Shown in pieces: positions 1,090 through 15,043 of a DNA stretch of 64,000 bases. The notes beneath the pieces are model-generated. The model searched no databases and had not been told where the DNA came from. It saw only the letters and a list, made by a program, of their open reading frames with translations. The stretch's first letter is position 1; each line of letters begins with the position of its first letter. Made by a program: the position numbers and the translations under genes. The stretch spans positions 17,112 to 81,111 of the forward strand of contig NZ_DASSWP010000030.1 in NCBI RefSeq assembly GCF_035704785.1, in the 5' to 3' direction. This stretch comes from Gracilimonas sp. (GTDB taxonomy: Bacteria; Bacteroidota; Rhodothermia; Balneolales; Balneolaceae).

Positions 1090-1659
1090 CTACCCCCAGA
1101 TCTTCAACATAAAGAAAACTATTACGCCAGTTACCGAAACATATAACCAAATTGGAAAAGTCCACCGGGAGACTTTTTTATGGGTTTTAAATTTCCCGCT
1201 CAAGGAAAAGTAAAAACTGGCCAGCACCAGCGGTACCACAAAAACAGAAAGAATAATGTGACTTATCAATATTATAAAGTAGACAGGCCTTACAAATCCC
1301 TCTCCCATGAACTTAGTATCTCCAACAAAATGATGATACACTACATAGCTCACCAGAAATAAAGAGGAAGTCACAAAGGCCGCCAGATTGAAACGCATGT
1401 GCTTCTGGAAATCACGCCGTTTGATCTCACGAAAGGCAAGCAGGAGAAATATGGTACTCAATGAATTCAAACCTGCATTTACTGCCGATAGATTTTTGAT
1501 CCAAGGTACAGGAGTTTCAGCTCCCTCCTTAAAATAGATAAGCCAGAACAAGAAAAGTACAGCAATAGCGCTGATCCCTATTATTAAAGACAAGGCTTTT
1601 TTCGCACTGATCTGTTCTAATATTTTGGAAGATTCAGGAAGAGTATAATTTTCATTCAT
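1090..1659 (-). CDS. DUF420 family membrane protein (often linked to oxidase clusters)
   Basis: NAGLNSLS...H.KHM, FLVSYVVYH, HIILS, HKKVSRWTFPIWLYVSVTGV motifs. Confidence 0.9.
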   Translation of the reverse strand: MNENYTLPESSKILEQISAKKALSLIIGISAIAVLFLFWLIYFKEGAETPVPWIKNLSAVNAGLNSLSTIFLLLAFREIKRRDFQKHMRFNLAAFVTSSLFLVSYVVYHHFVGDTKFMGEGFVRPVYFIILISHIILSVFVVPLVLASFYFSLSGKFKTHKKVSRWTFPIWLYVSVTGVIVFFMLKIWG

Positions 1660-1876: not shown

Positions 1877-1884
1877 TAGATTTG
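1877..1884 (+). promoter_or_regulatory. Candidate Bacteroidota-type -7 promoter element (TAGATTTG) for the act-cox operon
   Basis: Matches the TAnnTTTG consensus, 59 nt upstream of the actA start; -33 spacing is not ideal. Confidence 0.45.
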
Positions 1885-1942: not shown

Positions 1943-2587
1943 ATGGCGCAGATTTTCCCCAAGTGGACAAATCAGGTTCCCCGAAAAATTTTAATTGGAT
2001 TAATCGTTGTACTTAACGCACTAATTTTTGGTGTTTGGTATTTCTTTTCCCCTGAATACACTGACGTTGGCTATGCTCCGGAACAACCGGTTCCTTATAG
2101 TCATAAACTACACGTAGATCAGCTTGGGCTTGATTGTCAATATTGTCATACAAATGTTTTTGAATCAAAGTTCGCGAACATTCCTGCCACTCAAACTTGT
2201 ATGAATTGCCACAACCAGATCAAAACAGATAGTGATAAACTTGAATTGGTGCGCGAAAGTTGGGAGACTGGTAAATCCCTCGAATGGGTCCGGGTGCATA
2301 ACCTTGCTGATTATGCCTATTTCAATCACTCTGCTCACGTTACTGTAGGTGTTGGGTGTGAAAGCTGCCACGGCAGGGTCGATAAGATGGAAGTTGTGTA
2401 TCAGGCTGAGCCACTTAGCATGAGCTGGTGCCTGGATTGCCACAGGGAGCCCGAAAAATATATACGTCCCGTTGATGAAGTTACCACCATGGGATATGAA
2501 GTTGAAAATCAGCTAGAGCTTGGAAGAGAATTGGTAGAGAAGCAAAATATTCATGCTCCAACCTACTGCCAGGGTTGTCATTATTAA
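1943..2587 (+). CDS. actA: Alternative complex III pentaheme cytochrome c subunit ActA
   Basis: N-terminal TM helix plus five CxxCH motifs (CQYCH, CMNCH, CESCH, CLDCH, CQGCH); first gene of the act cluster. Confidence 0.92.
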   Translation: MAQIFPKWTNQVPRKILIGLIVVLNALIFGVWYFFSPEYTDVGYAPEQPVPYSHKLHVDQLGLDCQYCHTNVFESKFANIPATQTCMNCHNQIKTDSDKLELVRESWETGKSLEWVRVHNLADYAYFNHSAHVTVGVGCESCHGRVDKMEVVYQAEPLSMSWCLDCHREPEKYIRPVDEVTTMGYEVENQLELGRELVEKQNIHAPTYCQGCHY

Positions 2588-2589
2588 TA

Positions 2590-5500
2590 ATGAAGGATTC
2601 AGAAATTACAGATCAACAAATGAGCGAAGAAGTCAAAGAAAATACATATTGGAAGAGCTTAAGCGAATTAGCCAATAATAAAGAGTACCAAAAATTTGCT
2701 GAGCGTGAATTCCCTGAAAATGCCACTGAACTGACCGATGGGGTTTCCCGCCGCGGATTCCTCCGTGTTATGGGAGCTTCCGTAGCTTTGGCAGGATTGG
2801 CAGCTTGTCGCCGTCCGGTTCAAAAAATATTGCCATACTCAAAACAGCCTGAAGATGTGGTGGAAGGTGTGCCTTTATTCTATGCAACCGCCATGCCTGT
2901 TCAAGGTAATTTGGTTGGATTGATCGCTGAAAACAACGAAGGACGCCCAACCAAGCTTGAAGGAAATGACCTTCACCCTGCCAGCAAAGGCGGAAGCAGT
3001 ATTTACAATCAGGCGGCCATTCTCGGCCTTTACGACCCTGACCGCTCTCGTTTTCCCTTATATAATGGGAATAAAGCTTCCCTAGAAGATTTTGAAGCGT
3101 TCGCAAGTTCTCATTTTGCAAATACCAGTCAGCGGATCGCTTTTATTTCTGAAGCCAATTCCTCTCCTACCTATAATAGTATAAAGGAGCAGGCGCTTTC
3201 GAAATTCAACAATGCTACCTGGGTTACTTACGAACCTTTCGGTGAAGATAATGTACTTGAAGGGAATAATATTGCTTTCGGAAGCAGGTTACGCGCTTAT
3301 TACAATTTTGAAAGTGCAGATGTCATTGTCTCCCTGGATGATGACTTCATGAGCTCGACACATCCAAACAGTGTTGACTATGCCAAGCAGGTTTCGGCTC
3401 GCAGAAAGGTGACCGATACCAATGGTGAAATGAATCGTATCTACGCCGTAGAAGATTCTTTCTCCCTCACCGGTTCTTATGCTGATCATCGTTTAAAGAT
3501 CAAGGCCAGCCAAATGGAGGGATTTACCTATGCTCTCGCTGCCGCGCTTTCCACCCGAATTAATGGGTTAAATACTTTCAACGGATATAGCAACGAATTT
3601 TCTGATCATCGATGGATCACCGTTCTTGCCGATGAGTTGGCAGCAAACGCCGGAAGTTCTACTCTGTCAGCAGGAGCTCAGCATAAACCTGAAATACACG
3701 CCGCAGTGGCAGCGATCAATCAGGCCTTAGGTAATGTTGGAAACACGGTTAGCTACCTTGAAATTCCTTATACCGATGCACAGAGCAGCACCGCAGCTTT
3801 CCAAGAGGTGGTAGCTGAAATGAAAGCCGGCAATATTGATACGGTTGTTATGGTTGGTGTGAATCCTGTTTACACCGCTTCTGCTCTTGATTTTGGGAGC
3901 GCCCTCTCCAATGTTGAAACCGTGGTCAATCTTTCTGATTACGTAGATGAGACTGCCAAGAAATCAAACTGGCACGTAAATCATGCCCACTTCCTGGAAG
4001 CTTGGGGTGACGGATATTCTTATGGCGGAGCGCTTTCAGTTATACAGCCTCAGATTCAGCCTTTATTTAATGGGCTGAGTGGCATCGAATTTTTAAACAC
4101 TATTGTAAACGGGTCTTTGGAGCAGGGTTATTCCCTTGTTCAGGATACCTTCCGCGGATTTTTCAGCTCCGGTTTCAACAACCGCTGGACCAACATCCTG
4201 CACGATGGTATTGCCACGACGAATAATTTTAATGCCGTAAATGTACGGATAAGCTCCGATTTTGCTTCTGCAATGAATCGGGCTACATCAAATATATCTT
4301 CAACTTCGGGTATTGAAGTTGTTATTCGCCCTGATGCTACTTTATATGACGGGCGTTACGCAAACCTGGGCTGGCTTCAGGAACTTCCTGACCCCATGAC
4401 CAAGATCACTTGGGATAATGTGGCCCTTATGAGTCCTGCAATGGCAAAACGATTAGGTATAGAAAAGCCGGGTCCCGGAAATGATGCCTTTGATGTAGTT
4501 GAGATTACGGTTAATGGAAAAAGTATTGAAATTGCTGCCTGGATTCAGCCCGGTCACGTAGATGATTCCATCACTTTAACAACCGGCTATGGCCGTAAGG
4601 GAATTGGTCGCGTTGCTAGTTCTTACATTGATTACACCGCTGGCGGCGTTGATGTGTATCCGTTGAAAGCAACTTTAGATATGTTTTTTACAGCTGCTGA
4701 AGTTTCAAAAACCGGAGAAACCTACGAAATTGCCTGTGTTCAGGATCACCACAGTCTTGAAGGCCGCGATATGTATCGTCAGGCCTCCCTTTCTGAATAC
4801 AAAGAAAATCCGGACTTCGCCTCTTTTGAATCGGTTCATACTTATCCCGTTCCGGGAATGAAAGAAGCGGCCGAAATGGGTGAAGATGAGCCTATTTCAC
4901 TCTTTGACGAGCAAACCTTCCCTGATTACGAACCACAATGGGGAATGGCTATTGACCTGAACTCTTGTTTTGGTTGCGGAGTGTGTGTGATCGCTTGTCA
5001 GTCAGAGAACAATATCCCTGTGATAGGCAAGAAAGAAGTTAAACGCGGCCGTGAAATGCACTGGATAAGAAATGACCGCTATTACGTTGGTGATGATCCA
5101 AATTCACCGCAAGCCGTTCACCAGCCGGTCCCTTGCATGCACTGTGAGTTGGCTCCTTGTGAGCAGGTTTGTCCTGTTGCGGCAACCACCCACAGCCCCG
5201 ACGGCATGAACCAAATGACGTATAACCGCTGTATCGGAACTCGTTACTGCGCTAATAACTGCCCGTACAAAGTGCGTCGTTTTAATTTCTTCAACTATCC
5301 CAAAGAATATTTAACCACCGGTGACGATCCCGATATCATCCAAATGGCGATGAACCCGGAAGTTACCGTACGTTTCCGCGGTGTAATGGAAAAATGTACG
5401 TATTGCGTGCAGCGTGTTAACCGTGCTAAAATTAAAGCCAAGATAGAAACCGGTTCAGTAATACCGCCGGACGGTGCAGTTAAAACAGCTTGTCAACAAG

Positions 5501-5667
5501 CTTGCCCTGCCGATGCCATATACTTTGGTGACATATCCGACGAAGATACCGAAGTTGCCAAAATGAAACGCAATCCACGAAACTATCAGATGCTCGAGGA
5601 ACTCAATACACGTCCGAGAACATCATATGTAGCTAAACTTACGAACCCGAACCCAGCTTTGGCTTAA
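2590..5667 (+). CDS. actB: Alternative complex III subunit ActB (molybdopterin-oxidoreductase-like domain plus Fe-S domain)
   Basis: YWKSL N-terminus, Tat motif SRRGFL, lipobox LAAC, C-terminal ferredoxin Cys clusters (CFGCGVCVIAC, CMHCELAPCEQVCP, CIGTRYCANNCP); start could be 2590 or 2620. Confidence 0.93.
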   Translation: MKDSEITDQQMSEEVKENTYWKSLSELANNKEYQKFAEREFPENATELTDGVSRRGFLRVMGASVALAGLAACRRPVQKILPYSKQPEDVVEGVPLFYATAMPVQGNLVGLIAENNEGRPTKLEGNDLHPASKGGSSIYNQAAILGLYDPDRSRFPLYNGNKASLEDFEAFASSHFANTSQRIAFISEANSSPTYNSIKEQALSKFNNATWVTYEPFGEDNVLEGNNIAFGSRLRAYYNFESADVIVSLDDDFMSSTHPNSVDYAKQVSARRKVTDTNGEMNRIYAVEDSFSLTGSYADHRLKIKASQMEGFTYALAAALSTRINGLNTFNGYSNEFSDHRWITVLADELAANAGSSTLSAGAQHKPEIHAAVAAINQALGNVGNTVSYLEIPYTDAQSSTAAFQEVVAEMKAGNIDTVVMVGVNPVYTASALDFGSALSNVETVVNLSDYVDETAKKSNWHVNHAHFLEAWGDGYSYGGALSVIQPQIQPLFNGLSGIEFLNTIVNGSLEQGYSLVQDTFRGFFSSGFNNRWTNILHDGIATTNNFNAVNVRISSDFASAMNRATSNISSTSGIEVVIRPDATLYDGRYANLGWLQELPDPMTKITWDNVALMSPAMAKRLGIEKPGPGNDAFDVVEITVNGKSIEIAAWIQPGHVDDSITLTTGYGRKGIGRVASSYIDYTAGGVDVYPLKATLDMFFTAAEVSKTGETYEIACVQDHHSLEGRDMYRQASLSEYKENPDFASFESVHTYPVPGMKEAAEMGEDEPISLFDEQTFPDYEPQWGMAIDLNSCFGCGVCVIACQSENNIPVIGKKEVKRGREMHWIRNDRYYVGDDPNSPQAVHQPVPCMHCELAPCEQVCPVAATTHSPDGMNQMTYNRCIGTRYCANNCPYKVRRFNFFNYPKEYLTTGDDPDIIQMAMNPEVTVRFRGVMEKCTYCVQRVNRAKIKAKIETGSVIPPDGAVKTACQQACPADAIYFGDISDEDTEVAKMKRNPRNYQMLEELNTRPRTSYVAKLTNPNPALA

Positions 5668-5694: not shown

Positions 5695-7122
5695 ATGAGT
5701 AAATACCAATACGTACCGGAACCCACTCTTGTAAAAGGCGATCACGACTTTGCGAGCCTTACACGACTGGTTACTGATATTAATTTACGACCCACTCCCA
5801 AAGCATGGTACTTATGCATGATCGGGGCTAATGCCCTGCTTATGGTTATGGTTGTGGCCATTGGGTATCTAATTTGGGAGGGAACCGGAATCTGGGGCCT
5901 TAACAATCCTATTGGTTGGGGTTGGGCTATCATCAACTTTGTATGGTGGGTTGGTATTGGCCACGCCGGAACGTTGATCTCAGCTATCCTTTTCCTATTC
6001 CGACAGGACTGGCGTACTGCCATTAACCGTTTTGCGGAAGCGATGACCATCTTTGCGGTAATGTGTGCCGGAGTATTTCCGGCCATTCACGTTGGACGTA
6101 TCTGGGCTATCTACTGGGTATTCCCAATTCCTAACCAAATGGCTATGTGGCCCAACTTCAACTCTCCCCTTCTTTGGGATGTGTTTGCCGTTTCTACATA
6201 CTTCACCGTATCCTTTTTGTTCTGGTACGTTGGCTTGGTTCCCGATCTTGCTACCATCCGCGACCGTGCCACTGATAAGGTTCGAAAGGTTGCTTATGGA
6301 ATCTTCGCTTTAGGCTGGACCGGCTCAAACCGCCACTGGTGGAATTATGAAAAAGCATACATGATCTTAGCCGGATTAGCTACTCCACTGGTACTTTCTG
6401 TTCACACTATCGTATCCTTTGACTTTGCTGTTTCTTTGATACCGGGCTGGCACACCACCATCTTCCCTCCATATTTCGTTGCCGGGGCTATTTTCTCCGG
6501 TTTTGCAATGGTGCTTACGCTGATGATCGTTGCCCGCAAGATCTACGGAATGAAGGATATCATGACCGATGATCACATGGAGAAAATGAATATTGTGATA
6601 TTGGTTACCGGCTCCATGGTAGGTTTTGCCTATATGATGGAATTCTTCATCGCCTGGTATAGTGGCGTTGAATACGAAAAAGCTATTTTTATACTGAGAG
6701 CAACCGGTCCTTATGCATGGGCTTACTGGGCTATGATGACCTGTAACGTGCTCTCTCCTCAGTTCTTCTGGTCTAAGAAATTACGCCGCAGTGTCGGGTT
6801 CACTTTCTTTATCTCTATTGTGGTAAATATCGGTATGTGGTTTGAACGATTTGTAATTACAGTTACTTCACTGGCAAACGATTACCTGCCATCAAGCTGG
6901 GGTTATTATTCCCCTACTATCTGGGATGTTTTGACTTACGTTGGAACATTCGGCCTCTTTTTCACCATGTTCCTGCTGTTCCTGCGCTTCCTTCCAATGG
7001 TTGCACTTGCAGAGATCAAAGCGGTAATACCACAAGCCGATCCTCATAACTATGATGAGGAAACCGGTGAATTCCATAAGCCAAAAATAGAAGTACCGAA
7101 ACCTCAATCTGGGAAGGTTTAA
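5695..7122 (+). CDS. actC: Alternative complex III quinol-binding subunit ActC (NrfD/PsrC family)
   Basis: [41 protein letters not shown] motifs. Confidence 0.93.
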
Positions 7123-7127
7123 CAATT

Positions 7128-7673
7128 ATGAGTACGACTGATCAAAATAATTTATACGGAATTGTTGCTGAGTTTAAAACTCCTAAGCAACTTATTGATA
7201 TTGCCAAAAAAATGGTGGAATCAGGCTACAACAATTTTGATACCTTCAGCCCTTTCCCCATTCATGGAATGGATAAAGCCATGAAACTTAAAAAATCGAA
7301 ATTGGGCTGGATTGTACTTATATGTGGTTTAATCGGTTTTACCGGTGCTATCGCCATGATGTATTATATGGCTGTAGTTGACTATCCGATGAACATTAGC
7401 GGTAAGCCATTTTTCAATGCACCCGCCTGGGTTCCCATCACTTTTGAATTGACCGTATTGCTATCATCTTTTGGCGCTGTATTTGGGATGTTTTACCTGA
7501 ATGGGCTTCCAAAGCTTAACAATCCTCTTTTTAATGTAGAACGCTTTAAAAAAGTAACTGATGATAAATTCTTTGCCTGCATCGAAGCTGACGATGATAA
7601 ATTTGAAGCTGACGAAGTAAAGAAACTGTTTAAGGAAGCCGGAGCTACCCATATCGAGGAAGTTTATGAATAA
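7128..7673 (+). CDS. actD: Alternative complex III subunit ActD (DUF3341)
   Basis: DTFSPFPIHGMD and PITFELTVL motifs; two TM helices. Confidence 0.9.
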   Translation: MSTTDQNNLYGIVAEFKTPKQLIDIAKKMVESGYNNFDTFSPFPIHGMDKAMKLKKSKLGWIVLICGLIGFTGAIAMMYYMAVVDYPMNISGKPFFNAPAWVPITFELTVLLSSFGAVFGMFYLNGLPKLNNPLFNVERFKKVTDDKFFACIEADDDKFEADEVKKLFKEAGATHIEEVYE

Positions 7674-8703
7674 AAAGAACACGCAAATATCATTTCCAGG
7701 AATGAATTTTAAAGGAATGTTTAAGATTGCGGGCATTGTTGCGCTCGGAGTCTCCCTCTCGGCTTGTCAGGGGCAGCTTTCAGAAAAGCCGCCTATCCAT
7801 CCCAATATGAACATGGATCAACAGCCTAGAAAAGAAGCTCAGGAAGTTAACAATTTCTTTGCAGACGGCCGGTCCATGCGCCCCCCTGTAAAAGGGACTG
7901 TTGCTCGCGGATTAGCAAAATTAGATACCGAATATTACGAAGGCGTTGATGAGAACGGAGAATATATCGAACGTATTCCGGTTGATCTCACCCGATCTTT
8001 CCTATATCGGGGTAAAGAACGCTATGAAATTTTTTGCACTCCTTGTCACGGCCAAACCGGTGCGGGTAATGGTATTATCATGGAGGGAAATTATGGATAT
8101 GTTCCGGCTCCTTCCTACCATGATCAACGTGTGAGAAACCTTTCGGATGGCGAACTTTATTCCGCTATTTATAACGGTGTGCGAACCATGCCTTCTTATG
8201 CTAGCCAAATTGATGTTGAAGACCGATGGGCCATTGTAGCTTATATCCGTGCGCTTCAGGAAAGCCAGAATATCAGTGAGGAGGAACTGCAACAGTATGA
8301 TGTTGATATCGCTTCCCTGAATTCAAAAGCAGCTGAAGAACAAGCAGTAGCTGATTCTATTGCAGCTGCCCGGGAAGCCAGTTCAAAAGGACAGGAACCG
8401 ACTATCGAACTTGGGCAGGAAGCTATAACAGCCAATGCCTGTGGAACCTGCCACAGTGAAGACGGTACAGCCGGCATCGGACCAACATGGGCCGGATTAT
8501 TCGGAAGTGAAGGTGAGGTTATCACCGAGGGTGGTGAAACCATTACTGTAACAAAAGATGAAGACTACATTCGGGAATCGATTGTTGAGCCGAACGCCAA
8601 GAAACCTGTTGATTTTGCTCAGGGCGTGATGGCCTCCTACAGTTACCTATCTGATGTTGAGATAGAATCCATTATCCTGTACATAAAAAATCTTGAAAAC
8701 TAA
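7666..8703 (+). CDS. actE: Alternative complex III cytochrome c lipoprotein ActE with a second C-terminal cytochrome c domain
   Basis: Lipobox LSAC; MDQQPRK..MRPPVKGTVARG; CTPCH and a second CGTCH; position between actD and actF. Confidence 0.88.
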   Translation: MNKKNTQISFPGMNFKGMFKIAGIVALGVSLSACQGQLSEKPPIHPNMNMDQQPRKEAQEVNNFFADGRSMRPPVKGTVARGLAKLDTEYYEGVDENGEYIERIPVDLTRSFLYRGKERYEIFCTPCHGQTGAGNGIIMEGNYGYVPAPSYHDQRVRNLSDGELYSAIYNGVRTMPSYASQIDVEDRWAIVAYIRALQESQNISEEELQQYDVDIASLNSKAAEEQAVADSIAAAREASSKGQEPTIELGQEAITANACGTCHSEDGTAGIGPTWAGLFGSEGEVITEGGETITVTKDEDYIRESIVEPNAKKPVDFAQGVMASYSYLSDVEIESIILYIKNLEN

Positions 8704-8728: not shown

Positions 8729-9940
8729 ATGAGTCATAAGCCTACAATAACAGATTCTTTACAATTTCCAGCTGACAGCAAAGTTCCTCGTGCCTTATTT
8801 GGGATCGGTACAGTTGGTCTTATTGCTACCATTATAGGTTACTTCTTTGATGCCAATCAGTTTTTCTTTTCGTACTTAGTCAGCTTTACTTTTTTTACAG
8901 GCATAGCATTAGCCGCATTGATCATGGTTATGCTTCACCATATTACCCGTTCCAGCTGGGGAGTTCTTTTTAGACGAATTGCAGAAACTTTATCCGCCAA
9001 TTTATGGATATGGGCTATTTTTATCCTTCCGGTGATTCTCGGTATCCATAATCTATACCACTGGAGTCACCCCGAACTGTTGGACTACTCAAGCTCCGAG
9101 TTTGACAAGATCATATCCGGTAAATCGGCTTACCTGAATTCAACTTTTTTCATCATCCGCCAGGTCATCTATTTTGTGATCTGGGGATATTTGGGCTATA
9201 AGCTTCACAAGGTATCCGTTGAAATGGACAAAACCGATGACTGGGGTCTGACATATTTACTTCGAAAAGTAAGTGCCCCCGGCATCTTGCTATTTGCACT
9301 TACTGTAGCTTTTGCAAGTTTCGATTGGTTGATGTCGCTTGATCCCCACTGGTTCTCTACCATGTTCGGCGTGTATTTCTTTGCGATCAGCTTCCAGGCA
9401 TTATGGCCTGTAATGATCTTACTTGTGTTTTATATGCAGCGGAAAGGACTTCTTGCCAATACTATTCGTCAAGTGCATATCTACGATCTGGGTGCCTGGT
9501 TCTTTGCCTTCACCATATTTTACGCTTATATCGCTTTTAGTCAGTTTTTACTTATTTATTACGCGAATATTCCGGAGGAAACCATTTGGTATTTCCATAG
9601 ATTGGAAGGCGGATGGGAGTTTATAGCGTACAGCTTGTTAATCTTCCGCTTTGCCGTGCCTTTCCTGATTCTCCTGAATCGTGAGGCCAAAAAGAATAGA
9701 ACCATTCTTGGTGGAGTTTCAGTATTGGTACTCATTATTCACTTTGCAGAAATTTATTGGATAGCGATGCCGGCTTTGTACGACCATGGCATTAGCTTCA
9801 GTTGGATGGATATCACAGCCTTTCTTGGATTAGGAGGCCTGTTCTTTGGATTATTCTTCCATACTTTCAAGAAACACAGCATGGTTCCAGAAAATGATCC
9901 TAAATTGGATGACTGTCTCTCTAAATCGTATCATCAATAA
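8729..9940 (+). CDS. actF: Alternative complex III membrane subunit ActF
   Basis: About 10 TM helices; FASFDWLMSLDPHWFSTMFG and YIAFSQFLLIYYANIPEET motifs. Confidence 0.9.
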   Translation: MSHKPTITDSLQFPADSKVPRALFGIGTVGLIATIIGYFFDANQFFFSYLVSFTFFTGIALAALIMVMLHHITRSSWGVLFRRIAETLSANLWIWAIFILPVILGIHNLYHWSHPELLDYSSSEFDKIISGKSAYLNSTFFIIRQVIYFVIWGYLGYKLHKVSVEMDKTDDWGLTYLLRKVSAPGILLFALTVAFASFDWLMSLDPHWFSTMFGVYFFAISFQALWPVMILLVFYMQRKGLLANTIRQVHIYDLGAWFFAFTIFYAYIAFSQFLLIYYANIPEETIWYFHRLEGGWEFIAYSLLIFRFAVPFLILLNREAKKNRTILGGVSVLVLIIHFAEIYWIAMPALYDHGISFSWMDITAFLGLGGLFFGLFFHTFKKHSMVPENDPKLDDCLSKSYHQ

Positions 9941-9951
9941 TCGAATTACCG

Positions 9952-10488
9952 ATGTCAGAAAAGTATAGTTCAGAATTTAAAGCTAAAGTAGCACTCGAAG
10001 CCGTATCACAGAGTCGTTCTGTAATTCAGAAGATCGCTGAAAAGCATGACATATCTGAAGAAGAGGTGATCTCCTGGGCAGCACAATTAAATGAAGATGC
10101 TGCCAGTTTATTTGGTGCAGAAACAACCCATGTTGATGACGGCGGTGAAGTTGAAGATGTTGACATCACTACTAATGATGAGGAATTTGCCGCAGCTGTT
10201 TCCCACGGAGTGATGAGCGATAACCTGAATTACGGTAAACTCATTTTCTGGTCTACCCTTGGAGCTTCTCTTGTAATAATTTTTGTTATAGGATTGGTTT
10301 ATTTTTCTCAGTATAGCTTATTTGAAGCACAAAAAGAGGCTTCTTCAAGAGTAACATATTCTGATTTCAGTGCTTTAGTGGCTGAACAAAAACAAGAATT
10401 AAACAGTTTTGGTGTAGTTGACCTCGAAGAAGGTATCTACAGAATTCCTATTGACAGCGCTATTAACAGAATAGCCATAGAAGACTAA
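9952..10488 (+). CDS. ActG-like single-pass membrane subunit with an N-terminal IS3-transposase-like HTH
   Basis: Lies between actF and the SCO gene; one TM helix; C-terminal GVVDLEEGIYRIPIDSAI typical of ActG; N-terminal YSSEFKAKVALEA like HTH_Tnp_1. Confidence 0.65.
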   Translation: MSEKYSSEFKAKVALEAVSQSRSVIQKIAEKHDISEEEVISWAAQLNEDAASLFGAETTHVDDGGEVEDVDITTNDEEFAAAVSHGVMSDNLNYGKLIFWSTLGASLVIIFVIGLVYFSQYSLFEAQKEASSRVTYSDFSALVAEQKQELNSFGVVDLEEGIYRIPIDSAINRIAIED

Positions 10489-10495
10489 AATAATC

Positions 10496-11326
10496 ATGAG
10501 ACTTTTTACACTGTTAGCTCATATGTTGCTTGCAGTGTTTCTGACTTCACAGGCTGCTTTGGCGCAGTTAAACCGTGAACAACCGGATGCATTGCAAGAT
10601 CTTGGCATCGATGAACATTTGGGAGATATCATCCCTCTTGATGCCAAATTTGCAACTTCAGAAGGTGACAGTGTTCTTTTAAATGAACTTCTTGAAGAAG
10701 GTAAACCGATTTTATTGAATCCATTGTATTACGAATGCCCCATGTTGTGTGGGTTAGTTTTGGATGGAACAATCAACGTAATTGAAGAACTGGATTGGAA
10801 ACCCGGTAAAGATTTTATTGTTATATCTGTCAGTATTGATCCGGATGAAGATACTGAACTTGCGGCTCGGTCTAAACAAAATTACCTGAGCCAAATGGAT
10901 TCAACCACCAAAGCAGGGTGGTATTTTTTGACCGGCAACAAGACACAGATTGACAAAGTAGTTGAAGCCGTTGGGTTTCGATACAAAGAAATTGAAGGCA
11001 CAGGTGAATATGCCCACAGTGCAGCAATTATACTCCTGAGTCCTGATGGGAAAATAACCCGTTATCTGTACGGTATTTCCTATGATGAATTTAATGTTCG
11101 CAGTGCTCTATATGAGGCCGCAGATGGAAAGATTGGAAACACCATAGACAAAATTGTCATGTACTGTTATCAATATGATCCTGATTCCGGTAGTTATACG
11201 CCGGTAGCAATTAATATTATGAAGCTTGGTGGCTTGGCTACGCTGATATTTCTCGGTATATTCTTGGGTTCGCTTTGGCTTCGCGAAAAACGCAAAAAAC
11301 AAACCTCAAAAACTGATATTAACTAA
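10496..11326 (+). CDS. SCO1/SenC family copper chaperone
   Basis: YYECPMLCG (CxxxC) and AHSAA His; lies within the oxidase operon. Confidence 0.9.
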   Translation: MRLFTLLAHMLLAVFLTSQAALAQLNREQPDALQDLGIDEHLGDIIPLDAKFATSEGDSVLLNELLEEGKPILLNPLYYECPMLCGLVLDGTINVIEELDWKPGKDFIVISVSIDPDEDTELAARSKQNYLSQMDSTTKAGWYFLTGNKTQIDKVVEAVGFRYKEIEGTGEYAHSAAIILLSPDGKITRYLYGISYDEFNVRSALYEAADGKIGNTIDKIVMYCYQYDPDSGSYTPVAINIMKLGGLATLIFLGIFLGSLWLREKRKKQTSKTDIN

Positions 11327-12270
11327 TGGGCAGTTTATTCGATTTTATGCTTCCGGAGCTTAAATCTCCATTAACAGGAGCAAGTACCGATGCAGTGATG
11401 GCTTTCATCCACATTGTAAGCTTCATTATTCTTGCCGGTGTCACGATCGCATTGATCTATTTTGCGATCAAGTATAAGCGCAAGTCTGAAGACGACGAAA
11501 CGCCACTGATCACCCACAACAATAAGCTTGAGATCACTTGGTCAGTAATACCCCTTCTTCTGGTATTCATCGTATTTGGATGGGGATATAAAGGGTGGCT
11601 GAATCTTAAAACCCCTCCTGATAACGCTTACGAGATCCATGTTTCTGCTTACAAGTGGGGATGGACCTTCAGCTATGAAAATGGTGCTCAGGTTGGAAAT
11701 GAAGTTCATGTACCCGCAGGTCGCCCCGTTAAATTAGTGATGCAGTCAGAAGATGTATTGCACTCCTTTTTTGTACCGGCCTTTCGTATTAAGCAAGATG
11801 TGCTCCCTAACAGGTATACCACAGTATGGTTTCAGGTAGAAGAGCCGGGTGAATCTCAGGTTTTTTGTACGGAATATTGCGGAACCTCTCACTCTGATAT
11901 GTTAGCCACTGTAGTGGCTCATACTCCAGATGACTTTGAAAGCTGGCTTTCAGAACAAGGTTCAGGCAGTGGAGGAACACCCGTAGAAAGGGGTGAAAAC
12001 CTGATTAGTATTCAAGGGTGTGTAACCTGTCATTCTGTTGATGGTTCAGAGAAAATTGGCCCAACTTTCCAGGGACTATTTGGCCGCGAAGAAACGATGA
12101 CCGATGGAACTACTCTGACCGTTGATGAGAATTACATTAGAGAATCTATTTTGGATCCCGGAGCAAAAATTGTTGAAGGATATCAAAACCAGATGGTTAG
12201 TTACGAAGGTCGCTTAAGTGACGAAGACATCTCCGATATTATTGAATACATTAAAACTTTAGAAGATTAA
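11326..12270 (+). CDS. coxB: Cytochrome c oxidase subunit II with fused cytochrome c (caa3 type)
   Basis: [15 protein letters not shown], CuA motif [13 protein letters not shown]-terminal CVTCH. Confidence 0.95.
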
Positions 12271-12271
12271 T

Positions 12272-13975
12272 ATGTCAACAGCTGAAGTAACTCCGGAATC
12301 TACCGGAACAAAAAAGACATTAAAAGTAAAACGGTACAAGCCGTCCGAAGACCCCAAAAATACCTATTTAACCGATGAAAAAGGTCTATGGGCTTGGATG
12401 ACCACTGTAGATCATAAAAAGATCGGGCTCATGTACCTGGGCTCAGTTACTTTCTTTTTCTTATTAGGCGGTATTTTAGCACTTCTTTTAAGGACAGAAC
12501 TTTTAACACCTGCCAAAACCTTCATTGAGGCCGATACCTACAATCAGTTCTTCACGCTCCACGGAGCTATCATGGTATTCTTTGTGCTAATACCCTCCAT
12601 CCCTGCCGCGCTTGGAAACTTTGTACTTCCTATGCAGCTTGGAGCAAAGGATGTAGCGTTTCCGAGGCTCAACCTCGCCAGTTTCTATATCTATGTTATT
12701 GGAGCCATTTTTACATTCATTGCTCTTGCAAATAATGGATTAGACACCGGCTGGACCTTCTACACTCCTTACAGTACCGAATCTTCATCGAGTGTAATAT
12801 GGGTAACGCTTGGGGTTTTCATACTTGGATTTTCATCCATATTAACCGGTACTAACTTTATTGCCACCATTCACAAGTTACGGGCACCCGGTATTACCTG
12901 GGGTAAACTTCCTTTGAATTTATGGGCATTATATGCCACAAGTATTATTCAGGTACTTGCTACTCCTGTATTAGCTATTACAGTTTTGCTTCTTACTATG
13001 GAGCGTGCTCTTGGAATAGGAATTTTTGATCCGGCTCTTGGCGGTGACCCGGTTTTATTCCAGCATTTCTTCTGGTTCTACTCTCACCCCGCTGTATATA
13101 TTATGATCGTGCCTGCCTTTGGGATCATCTCTGAAGTGATCACTACCTTCTCCAAGAAACATATTTTTGGATATTGGGCGATCGCACTTTCATCCCTAGC
13201 CATTGCCTTTATTGGATTCCTCGTATGGGGACACCACATGTTCACCTCAGGTCAGTCGGCTGTAGCAACCACCGTTTTCTCATTCCTAACTTTCTTAGTG
13301 GGAATCCCGACCGGTATTAAGATCCTGAACTGGGTTGCTACCTTATACAAAGGTTCTATTCAAATGAAATCTCCGATGATCTATGTATTCAGCTTCTTGT
13401 TCATATTCTCTATCGGTGGATTTACAGGGATCATGCTTGGAGCACTTTCAGCCGATATTCACCTTCACGATACCTATTATGTGGTAGCCCACTTTCACTA
13501 TGTGATGATGGGTGGTACCCTGATTTCATTTCTTGCCGGACTCCACTATTGGTGGCCAAAAATGACAGGGAAGATGTACAACGAATTTCAGGCTAAGATT
13601 GGAGCTGCTTTAATTTTCATCGGCTTTAACACGACCTTCCTTCCGCAGTTCATTATGGGATCGCAGGGAATGCCTCGACGATATTATAACTACATAGATC
13701 AGTTTACCATATTCCACCAAACTTCAACTATCGGTTCTTATATACTTGGAGTTGGATTCTTACTGATCGCTTACTACTTAGCAAAATCATTAATGAGTGG
13801 TGAAAAAGCCGGTTCAAATCCATGGGGAAGCCGTGGTTTGGAATGGCAGGCAACATCACCACCTGATTTCCACAACTTCGATCACACTCCGGTGATCATT
13901 AATGGTCCTTATGACTATCACAGGCCTATGGAAGAATTCCAGCTTGGCTTGGCGAATGAAGACAAAGATCACTGA
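12272..13975 (+). CDS. coxA: Cytochrome c oxidase subunit I, type A2
   Basis: [20 protein letters not shown] (YS motif of type A2), VWGHHMF, VAHFHYV. Confidence 0.96.
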
Positions 13976-14046: not shown

Positions 14047-14697
14047 ATGGCGAATCATTCGACTTCACACCCTACGCATGTGCATCATCACTTTGTTGAT
14101 TCCGATCAGCAATTTGATACCGCAAAATTGGGTATGTGGGTGTTCTTAGTAAACGAAATCTTATTTTTTGGCGGGTTATTCTGTGCCTATATCGTTTATA
14201 GAGCATGGTATCCGGAACTATTCCAAATGGCTGCACTTGAGCTCAATACCTTTTGGGGAGCAGTAAACACTGTTGTTCTTATCGGTAGTAGTTTAACGGT
14301 AGCTATGGCCATACGGTCTGCCCAGAAAGATCAAATGAAAGGGTTAAAAATAAACCTTCTCATAACTATTGGCCTTGCAGTGGTATTTATGGTTATTAAA
14401 GGCTTTGAGTATGCCCATAAGTTTGAGCTTGGCATTTTCCCGGGTGAGTATTACACCTATGAAGGTCTTGATCATCCACAGGCAGCTATTTTCTTTAGTA
14501 TCTATTATATGCTGACCGGTGTTCACGCTTTGCACGTTTTGATCGGTATCGGCTTGATCTACTGGATCTACCGAAGAGCAAAGAAAGGAGAATTTAGCAG
14601 CGAGTACTATACTCCTGTTGAGATTACAGGACTTTACTGGCACTTGGTTGACCTTATATGGATCTTCCTCTTCCCGCTACTTTACCTCATTGAATGA
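14047..14697 (+). CDS. coxC: Cytochrome c oxidase subunit III
   Basis: GMWVFLVNE, LTGVHALHV, YWHLVDLIWIFLFP. Confidence 0.93.
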   Translation: MANHSTSHPTHVHHHFVDSDQQFDTAKLGMWVFLVNEILFFGGLFCAYIVYRAWYPELFQMAALELNTFWGAVNTVVLIGSSLTVAMAIRSAQKDQMKGLKINLLITIGLAVVFMVIKGFEYAHKFELGIFPGEYYTYEGLDHPQAAIFFSIYYMLTGVHALHVLIGIGLIYWIYRRAKKGEFSSEYYTPVEITGLYWHLVDLIWIFLFPLLYLIE

Positions 14698-14725: not shown

Positions 14726-15043
14726 ATGAGCACACATAATCACGAACATCATATTTCTACAGCAGGCCAGCTTTGGGCCGTTGGAACCGCACTGTTGATC
14801 CTGACCATCATCACGGTGGTAGTCGCAAAATTTGTTGCGATTCCCCCACCCTTTGATGTGGTCACCGCTATATCCATTGCTTTGATAAAAGCATTTTTGG
14901 TAGCTGCATTTTTTATGAATTTATATTGGGATGTAAAATTCAATGCTATGCTTTTAATCACGGCTGTAATATTCTTCCTTTTAATGATCTCCATTACATT
15001 ACTTGATACATTGTATCGAAATGATGTAGTGCCTTCATTTTGA
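14726..15043 (+). CDS. coxD: Cytochrome c oxidase subunit IV family protein
   Basis: Three TM helices, KAFLVAAFFMNL motif; last gene of the operon. Confidence 0.85.
   Translation: MSTHNHEHHISTAGQLWAVGTALLILTIITVVVAKFVAIPPPFDVVTAISIALIKAFLVAAFFMNLYWDVKFNAMLLITAVIFFLLMISITLLDTLYRNDVVPSF

Follow-up and report, generated by a model that had tools for sequence, protein, structure and literature searches.

The 64,000-nt stretch of Gracilimonas sp. DNA analysed here (the window) contains a co-oriented ACIII-SCO-caa3 operon of 12 genes, in which a small gene, actG, separates actA-F from a SCO gene and coxB-A-C-D (Table 1). The uninterrupted ATG-started ORF of actG translates exactly into the 178-aa protein quoted in an earlier note on this DNA. 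That note placed the gene tightly between actF and SCO, and the spacing agrees, with 11 nt from the actF stop (9940) to the actG ATG and 7 nt from the end of actG to the SCO start (10496). Strict actF-X-SCO-coxB synteny is seen in 24/24 and 39/40 related loci, R. marinus included, and the longer order actC-D-E-F-X-SCO-coxB-coxA-coxC in 24/24 loci from a scan of one genome per species. The actG gene is co-transcribed between actF and SCO. A search of sequencing runs for RNA evidence on the actG locus matched DNA metagenome runs only.

Table 1 Features of the act-cox region and of the actG product, with positions in the window
Feature	Position (nt)	Strand	Extent	Description and evidence
DUF420 membrane-protein gene	1093-1659	-		divergent from actA
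Palindrome cTATTTAGAA-N4-TTTAAATAa	1811-1831			about 110-130 nt upstream of the actA ATG
Bacteroidetes-type -7 box TAGATTTG	1877-1884			after the palindrome
actA	1943-2587	as actG		multihaem (Pfam)
actB	2575-5667	as actG		Fe-S (Pfam)
actC	5695-7122	as actG		NrfD-type (Pfam)
actD	7128-7673	as actG		PF11821 (Pfam)
actE	7666-8703	as actG		cytochrome c (Pfam)
actF	8729..9940	+		NrfD-like membrane subunit of ACIII; cross-hits to ActC; position kept in all loci
actG with fused HTH	9952..10488	+	178 aa plus stop	between actF and SCO; ORF and translation, synteny, 228 homologues
HTH_Tnp_1 domain, IS3-family OrfA-derived	9952..10122	+	residues 1-57	Pfam, BLASTP, hhalign, AF2, charge comparison, dN/dS
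Acidic linker and juxtamembrane segment	10123..10239	+	residues 58-96	alignments, pLDDT, charge, dN/dS 0.27
Single TM helix (LIFWSTLGASLVIIFVIGLVYF)	10240..10305	+	residues 97-118	predicted N-in / C-out
ActG core tail, predicted periplasmic	10306..10485	+	residues 119-178	helix, then near-invariant motif; invariant columns, profile, hhalign, dN/dS
Near-invariant motif LNSFGVVDLEEGIYRIPIDSAI	10399-10464	+	L150-I171	alignment columns
SCO1/SenC copper chaperone gene	10496..11326	+		Pfam PF02630; synteny; followed by coxB, coxA, coxC, coxD
coxB	11326-12270	as actG		Pfam COX2
coxA	12272-13975	as actG
coxC	14047-14697	as actG
coxD	14726-15043	as actG

Some further traits of the operon were recorded. 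The divergent DUF420 gene and actA have a common control region of 283 bp. The C-terminal third of ActE (residues ~237-345; window 8290-8703) cross-hits the cytochrome c domain of CoxB (residues ~209-314; 11950-12270) with 40-55% identity in every locus, so that ActE of this order bears a second, CoxB-like cytochrome c domain. In some relatives, actE and actF are separated by an additional small cytochrome c ORF.

A profile of the C-terminal module of the window protein (residues ~85-178, the TM helix and tail, from ten long and short forms) finds one copy in 184/201 genomes across the class Rhodothermia (71/73 genera) and is matched in 25/108 genera across the phylum. The profile also matches the R. 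marinus ORF after actF (E 1.1e-15), a 130-aa product encoded in the order actE-actF-ORF-SCO-coxB and opening with MAEQEKKQPAVAEAELPAVQPDEANFEAPR. The published R. marinus ActG (Rhom172_0210, G2SEG6) is represented by the MS/MS peptide QPAVAEAEELPAVQPDEANFEAPR, residues 6-30 (Sousa et al. 2018, PMC5928083 Suppl. Fig. 3), and comparison with this peptide identifies the MAEQEKKQPAVAEAELPAVQPDEANFEAPR-starting ORF as that protein, apart from one strain difference. Alignment of the C-module profile with R. marinus ActG (hhalign, 98.3%, E 1.3e-14) pairs GVVDAEQGVYRVPIDRAM with GVVDLEEGIYRIPIDSAI, the tail that is nearly invariant across homologues of the window protein. ActG has one predicted TM helix, is the only subunit that some act clusters lack, and left no density in the cryo-EM map of R. 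marinus ACIII (PMC5928083). The two proteins thus have the same position (actF - actG - SCO - coxB), the single-pass form (about 130 aa in R. marinus) and homologous TM helices and tails in common, but R. marinus ActG has a short, unstructured N-terminus of its own of about 30 aa, and the window protein adds a 57-aa HTH_Tnp_1 domain and an acidic linker. On homology and gene order, the window gene encodes ActG, a small single-pass accessory subunit of alternative complex III.

The AF2 confidence is low for the near-invariant tail, as one would expect if this segment took up its fold on a partner. No haem or Fe-S motifs were found in the window protein sequence, the ActG core is not covered by any Pfam or NCBIfam model, and a PDB sequence search with the family profile gave chance-level matches only (E about 0.5) and no ActG-like chain. 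A Pfam match to FtsH_ext (residues 108-146, E 0.0012) is below the cut-off and covers the TM helix together with the next helix; it was taken as spurious.

Upstream of this core, linker residues 58-90 carry a net charge of -10 and are partly disordered (AF2 pLDDT <50 at residues 57-68); an amphipathic helix (77-89) and the juxtamembrane motif HGVxxDxLNY-K follow, and the segment 58-96 is also found in HTH-less Balneolales ActG. AF2 gives a long helix spanning the TM region (94-151, pLDDT 92-95). Among 195 distinct family members, the 6-aa flanks of the TM helix contain on average 1.63 K+R on the N side vs. 0.18 on the C side, the N side being richer in 166/195 sequences, and no signal peptide precedes the 96-residue N-terminal region. 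Since K/R residues cluster just before the TM helix, the positive-inside rule predicts a cytoplasmic location for HTH and acidic linker and a periplasmic one for the conserved tail. As a counterpoint, the Ig-domain ActG subfamily of other Rhodothermia has weakly charged, ambiguous flanks. A periplasmic N-terminus (N-out) was considered because sister families bear an Ig-like N-domain; it is less likely, given the K/R residues before the TM helix and the lack of a signal peptide.

For the N-terminus, the earlier note described an IS3 OrfA/HTH_Tnp_1 pattern, to be followed by an acidic linker, one TM helix and an ActG-like tail, and the profile matches agree with this for the HTH and for the ActG-like part. 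Residues 3-50 match PF01527 (HTH_Tnp_1) in Pfam with E 1.9e-5 and 25.2 bits, above the gathering cut-off of 24.1 bits, and 13/22 diverse homologues match the same model individually (best E 2.9e-7); NCBIfam gives weak IS66-TnpA and IS3 transposase matches. Residues 5-64 show 48% identity to a genuine IS3 OrfA (BLASTP, E 2e-13), and the profile of the fused HTH aligns to an OrfA profile with 98.9% probability (hhalign, E 3.8e-17). A scan of one genome per prokaryote species yielded N-terminal-only matches of 36-47% identity from many phyla. These are OrfA proteins of 95-104 aa with a leucine zipper, and in all four loci scanned an overlapping OrfB with HTH_21 and rve comes directly after OrfA; the zipper-bearing OrfA and the HTH_21/rve OrfB mark the matched proteins as bona fide IS3-family elements. 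With IS3 OrfA (InsN/TnpA-type, PF01527) the fused domain shares a homologous HTH, of three predicted helices, at 36-48% identity, including the same FKAKVALEA helix 1, the invariant Trp of helix 3 and the terminal LF. By these comparisons residues 1-57 are a genuine HTH_Tnp_1 domain of the IS3 OrfA type. The closest relatives of the HTH being OrfA proteins with an HTH_21 and rve OrfB, the claim that a transposase fragment was recruited as the N-terminal domain of an ActG-like subunit is upheld as well.

The AF2 model of this domain consists of three helices (7-18, 22-31 and 36-55) with pLDDT of about 80 in the full protein and the isolated domain alike. When the full and HTH-only models were searched against the PDB with Foldseek, the best superpositions were on homeodomain-type HTHs (TM-score 0.6-0.72), and the list includes the IS protein TnpE (2rn7). 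All E values exceed 0.2, so that no match is statistically significant, and the output is at most compatible with a homeodomain-like fold.

The surroundings of the domain are not those of a mobile element. No rve/DDE ORF was found in the act-cox operon and no IS-type terminal inverted repeats flank actG in the 1.7 kb scanned, just as the earlier note had reported no OrfB/DDE domain or inverted repeats nearby. The actG gene is the sole PF01527 match in the 2.78-Mb genome, and the three rve ORFs of this genome sit on other small contigs. No leucine zipper follows the fused HTH, the acidic linker and then the TM helix being there instead. The features of a functional IS3 element (zipper, OrfB/DDE, terminal repeats, multiple copies) are thus lacking, and the position is fixed and syntenic across Balneolaceae. 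Unlike IS3 OrfA, the fused protein also has no frameshift site, the residues of its basic N-arm and recognition helix are replaced, and its HTH is single-copy, vertically inherited and joined to a membrane protein. One inverted repeat, 10021-10038 / 10216-10233 (15/18 complementary, 177 nt between the arms), was considered as an IS end and rejected; it lies inside the coding sequence and is probably meaningless, since chance alone would give about 0.5 such 15/18 pairs in a 1.7-kb scan.

Among the 228 homologues of the window protein, the best 120 include 114 with the HTH, and matches still span the full length at identities as low as about 37%. By profile scan, actG occurs in 186/201 Balneolaceae genomes and the HTH in at least 138 of these 186; in the 150 best matches listed, coverage begins at profile position <=19 in 138 and at >=30 in the other 12, which lack the HTH. 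The domain is kept across most of the 40 sampled genera with ActG. None of the five other Balneolales families sampled has it, nor do R. marinus or a KSB1 genome, and on this sampling the HTH-ActG fusion is restricted to Balneolaceae.

In an ML tree of concatenated SCO and ActF (64 loci), Balneolaceae stand apart from the HTH-less outgroup families, and the HTH occurs in every major clade of the family. HTH-less forms are nested within HTH-bearing clades, and one short-form clade contains an HTH-bearing member. The tree requires a minimum of five changes between presence and absence of the HTH, and fits one gain with at least three to four losses; with that many independent losses, the HTH would be dispensable in some lineages and in this sense accessory. 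The HTH-less Gracilimonas amylolytica is sister to an HTH-bearing Gracilimonas in the same tree. Its protein keeps the start of the sister's (MSDKQNSEHK vs. MSDKQSSEFK) and then skips ~41 codons, and by this alignment G. amylolytica lost the HTH by an in-frame internal deletion. A second tree, resting on 54 columns, places 60 diverse fused HTHs on one side of a single branch and 29 IS3 OrfA HTHs on the other (SH-aLRT 96). This topology fits a single capture of the HTH in an ancestor of Balneolaceae.

Median dN/dS values (Nei-Gojobori, 45 pairs with dS 0.05-1.5) are 0.149 for the HTH, 0.270 for the linker and 0.143 for the TM helix and tail. The value for the HTH implies that its codons are translated and constrained as strongly as the ActG core. 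Conservation of the fusion under purifying selection in other act operons, a point raised in the earlier note, is supported, with the fusion in at least 138 of 186 ActG-bearing Balneolaceae genomes and not specific to one strain. Neither outcome that the earlier note had named as refuting its inference, the lack of a profile match to HTH_Tnp_1 or a strain-specific fusion with an internal start, was obtained. Short ActG forms of 116-140 aa do occur in relatives, and one could suppose from these that the HTH codons of the window gene are a dead, untranslated IS3 remnant, with ActG starting at an internal Met. We regard this as extremely improbable, because at least 138 genomes have kept an open frame that begins at the same MS(E/D)K, selection acts on the HTH codons as just described, the in-frame internal deletion of G. 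amylolytica keeps the original start (MSDKQ-SE-K), and only 11 nt lie between the actF stop and the ATG.

Other N-terminal additions to ActG were seen outside the common form. A metagenomic relative of 250 aa, P0072, has two tandem copies of the transposase-derived HTH ahead of the ActG core. In several other Rhodothermia families a beta-rich Ig-like domain of ~100 aa, with no signal peptide, stands before the ActG TM helix. Its pattern is ...V.F.W.PV.GA..Y.L.VA.D..F......YYWRV..., and it matches Pfam Ig_Rha78A_N at E 0.03-0.05, which is sub-threshold. These Ig-domain proteins resemble the window protein in having the same ActG core and gene position and a lineage-specific globular N-domain, but the module itself, about 100 aa of beta-rich Ig-like sequence, is unrelated to the HTH and looks like a second, independent domain addition. 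New beyond the earlier note are thus two observations: the HTH has been lost repeatedly, and other Rhodothermia families bear a different N-terminal domain at the same place.

It may be asked whether the HTH is simply a tolerated appendage, close to neutral and with no specific partner, whose generic role as a folded cap would be to help a very acidic N-tail to be expressed, to stay stable or to insert N-in. Such a role would suit the several in-frame losses with persistence of the short forms, a family-wide drift of the surface residues to 22-40% identity, a second, tandem copy of the HTH in one relative, and the fact that other Rhodothermia families have either no domain or an unrelated Ig-like one at this position. 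However, the HTH has the dN/dS of the conserved ActG core (0.15) and is kept across most of the 40 sampled ActG-bearing genera, and a neutral domain of 57 aa would be expected to decay or vanish far more often. A mere appendage therefore appears unlikely to us.

The OrfA domain of IS3/IS911 is a DNA binder. In the window protein, the earlier note had remarked on an acidic recognition helix, and this trait generalises to the whole fused family, both in charge and position by position. The mean net charge of the 57-aa HTH is +3.86 (sd 1.5) in 37 distinct IS3 OrfAs vs. -3.45 (sd 1.8) in 114 fused HTHs, with -5 in the window protein. Some of this acidic shift is compositional, since the baseline for the window's proteome is itself -2.2 per 57 aa. 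Residues of the hydrophobic core and the helix-1 signature are kept in the fused family (F9, K10, V13, A14, A17, I/L25, I/L28, A29, V34, V/I39, W42, L46 and F54). The share of K/R falls from 83% in OrfA to 19% in the fused family at position 3 (where 55% are now D/E), from 75% to 0% at position 19, from 66% to 19% at position 23, from 97% to 0% at position 43 and from 63% to 7% at position 44. At the start of helix 3 (positions 35-38), the H-P-N-Q of OrfA is replaced by S/P-E/V-E/S-E (51-59% D/E), and the recognition helix is variable within the fused family except for the Trp. From this loss of the basic and polar OrfA surface we infer that the fused HTH is no longer a sequence-specific DNA binder.

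For the act promoter, the upstream regions of actA were compared between 21 genomes with and 20 without the HTH, and no HTH-specific operator was found in these 41 regions. Most of the 41 Balneolales genomes, whether they have the HTH or not, show a version of the Table 1 palindrome ahead of actA, and palindrome and -7 box are also present in the outgroup families. The act promoter of the HTH-less G. amylolytica is nearly identical to that of its HTH-bearing sister. That these elements are the same with and without the HTH argues against an autoregulator at the act promoter; the palindrome is probably the operator of some regulator of the ACIII-caa3 operon.

These results bear on the possibility that ActG with its HTH is a membrane-tethered transcription factor of the ToxR/CadC kind, the HTH still binding DNA, for example at the act-cox promoter or at a site derived from an IS end, and the TM helix and periplasmic tail sensing the condition of the respiratory complex and so linking it to gene expression. 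Regulators such as ToxR, CadC and TcpP bind defined operators through winged-helix domains of the OmpR type whose DNA contacts are intact. The window protein resembles them, as one-component membrane regulators, in the order of its parts (an N-terminal, cytoplasmic domain of DNA-binding type, linker, one TM helix, periplasmic portion), its ancestral OrfA domain binds DNA, K10 and K12 of helix 1 are retained, and there is a conserved palindrome upstream of actA. It differs from them in its acidic HTH and in that the act promoter comparison revealed no cognate site. Nearly all conserved basic or polar surface positions of OrfA are now acidic or small, the domain has a negative net charge, the recognition helix lacks conservation in the fused family, the palindrome and promoter blocks occur equally in HTH-less species and outgroups, G. 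amylolytica among them, and the HTH has been lost repeatedly while the operon stayed. We consider such a regulator quite improbable, and the evidence favours a protein-interaction or assembly module over it.

A broader variant would have the HTH as a working signalling module that binds nucleic acid or captures a cytoplasmic regulator, with ActG reporting the assembly or redox state of ACIII-caa3 to gene expression. We hold this to be highly doubtful. If true, it would make ActG a respiratory-complex subunit that owes a second role, as a membrane-tethered regulator, to a domesticated IS3 OrfA.

The interpretation that we find rather probable is that the HTH was exapted as a docking or biogenesis module of the accessory ACIII subunit ActG, predicted to lie in the cytoplasm and not to bind DNA. 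In outline, some 57 residues from the HTH of an IS3-family OrfA, without zipper, OrfB or terminal repeats, were joined to the N-terminus of ActG. There they may fold into a compact three-helix bundle in the cytoplasm, linked through a flexible acidic tether of ~35 residues (net -10). The TM helix and the near-invariant periplasmic tail would anchor ActG to the ACIII-caa3 assembly, and the HTH, as an accessory protein-docking or biogenesis module, may contact the cytoplasmic face of this assembly or an assembly factor, or may lock the N-in topology. Since the HTH is dispensable in several lineages, and another domain or none is found at the same place elsewhere, the N-terminus of ActG would be an evolvable, non-essential platform.

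In public databases HTH-ActG proteins are named "transposase", "transposase-like protein" or "hypothetical protein" (e.g. WP_290961254.1, WP_255135145.1, A0A6M1SYY2), and the short G. amylolytica form (WP_103665285.1) is annotated "hypothetical". The "transposase" label in RefSeq/UniProt is a systematic misannotation of a respiratory gene and arises from the PF01527 match.

Host proteins that have stably taken up a transposase domain are well known from eukaryotes but have seldom been documented in bacteria, and we know of no case inside a respiratory-complex subunit. Full-text literature searches found nothing that links ActG or ACIII to an HTH, a transposase domain or Balneolaceae, nothing relevant on a domesticated HTH_Tnp_1, and no case of a transposase domain inside a respiratory-complex subunit. 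The ActG core and the OrfA HTH are each known; their combination appears to be undescribed.

The fusion offers a clean case of bacterial exaptation, with what would be one capture and at least 138 genomes that retain the domain under purifying selection, and natural in-frame deletion "mutants", such as G. amylolytica beside its HTH-bearing sisters, allow comparison. It also defines a conserved ActG core, composed of the TM helix and the motif G-I/V-Y-R-I/V-P-I-D/E, and so gives sequence-level information on a subunit without cryo-EM density. More generally, the N-terminus of ActG may be seen as a hotspot for lineage-specific domain additions.
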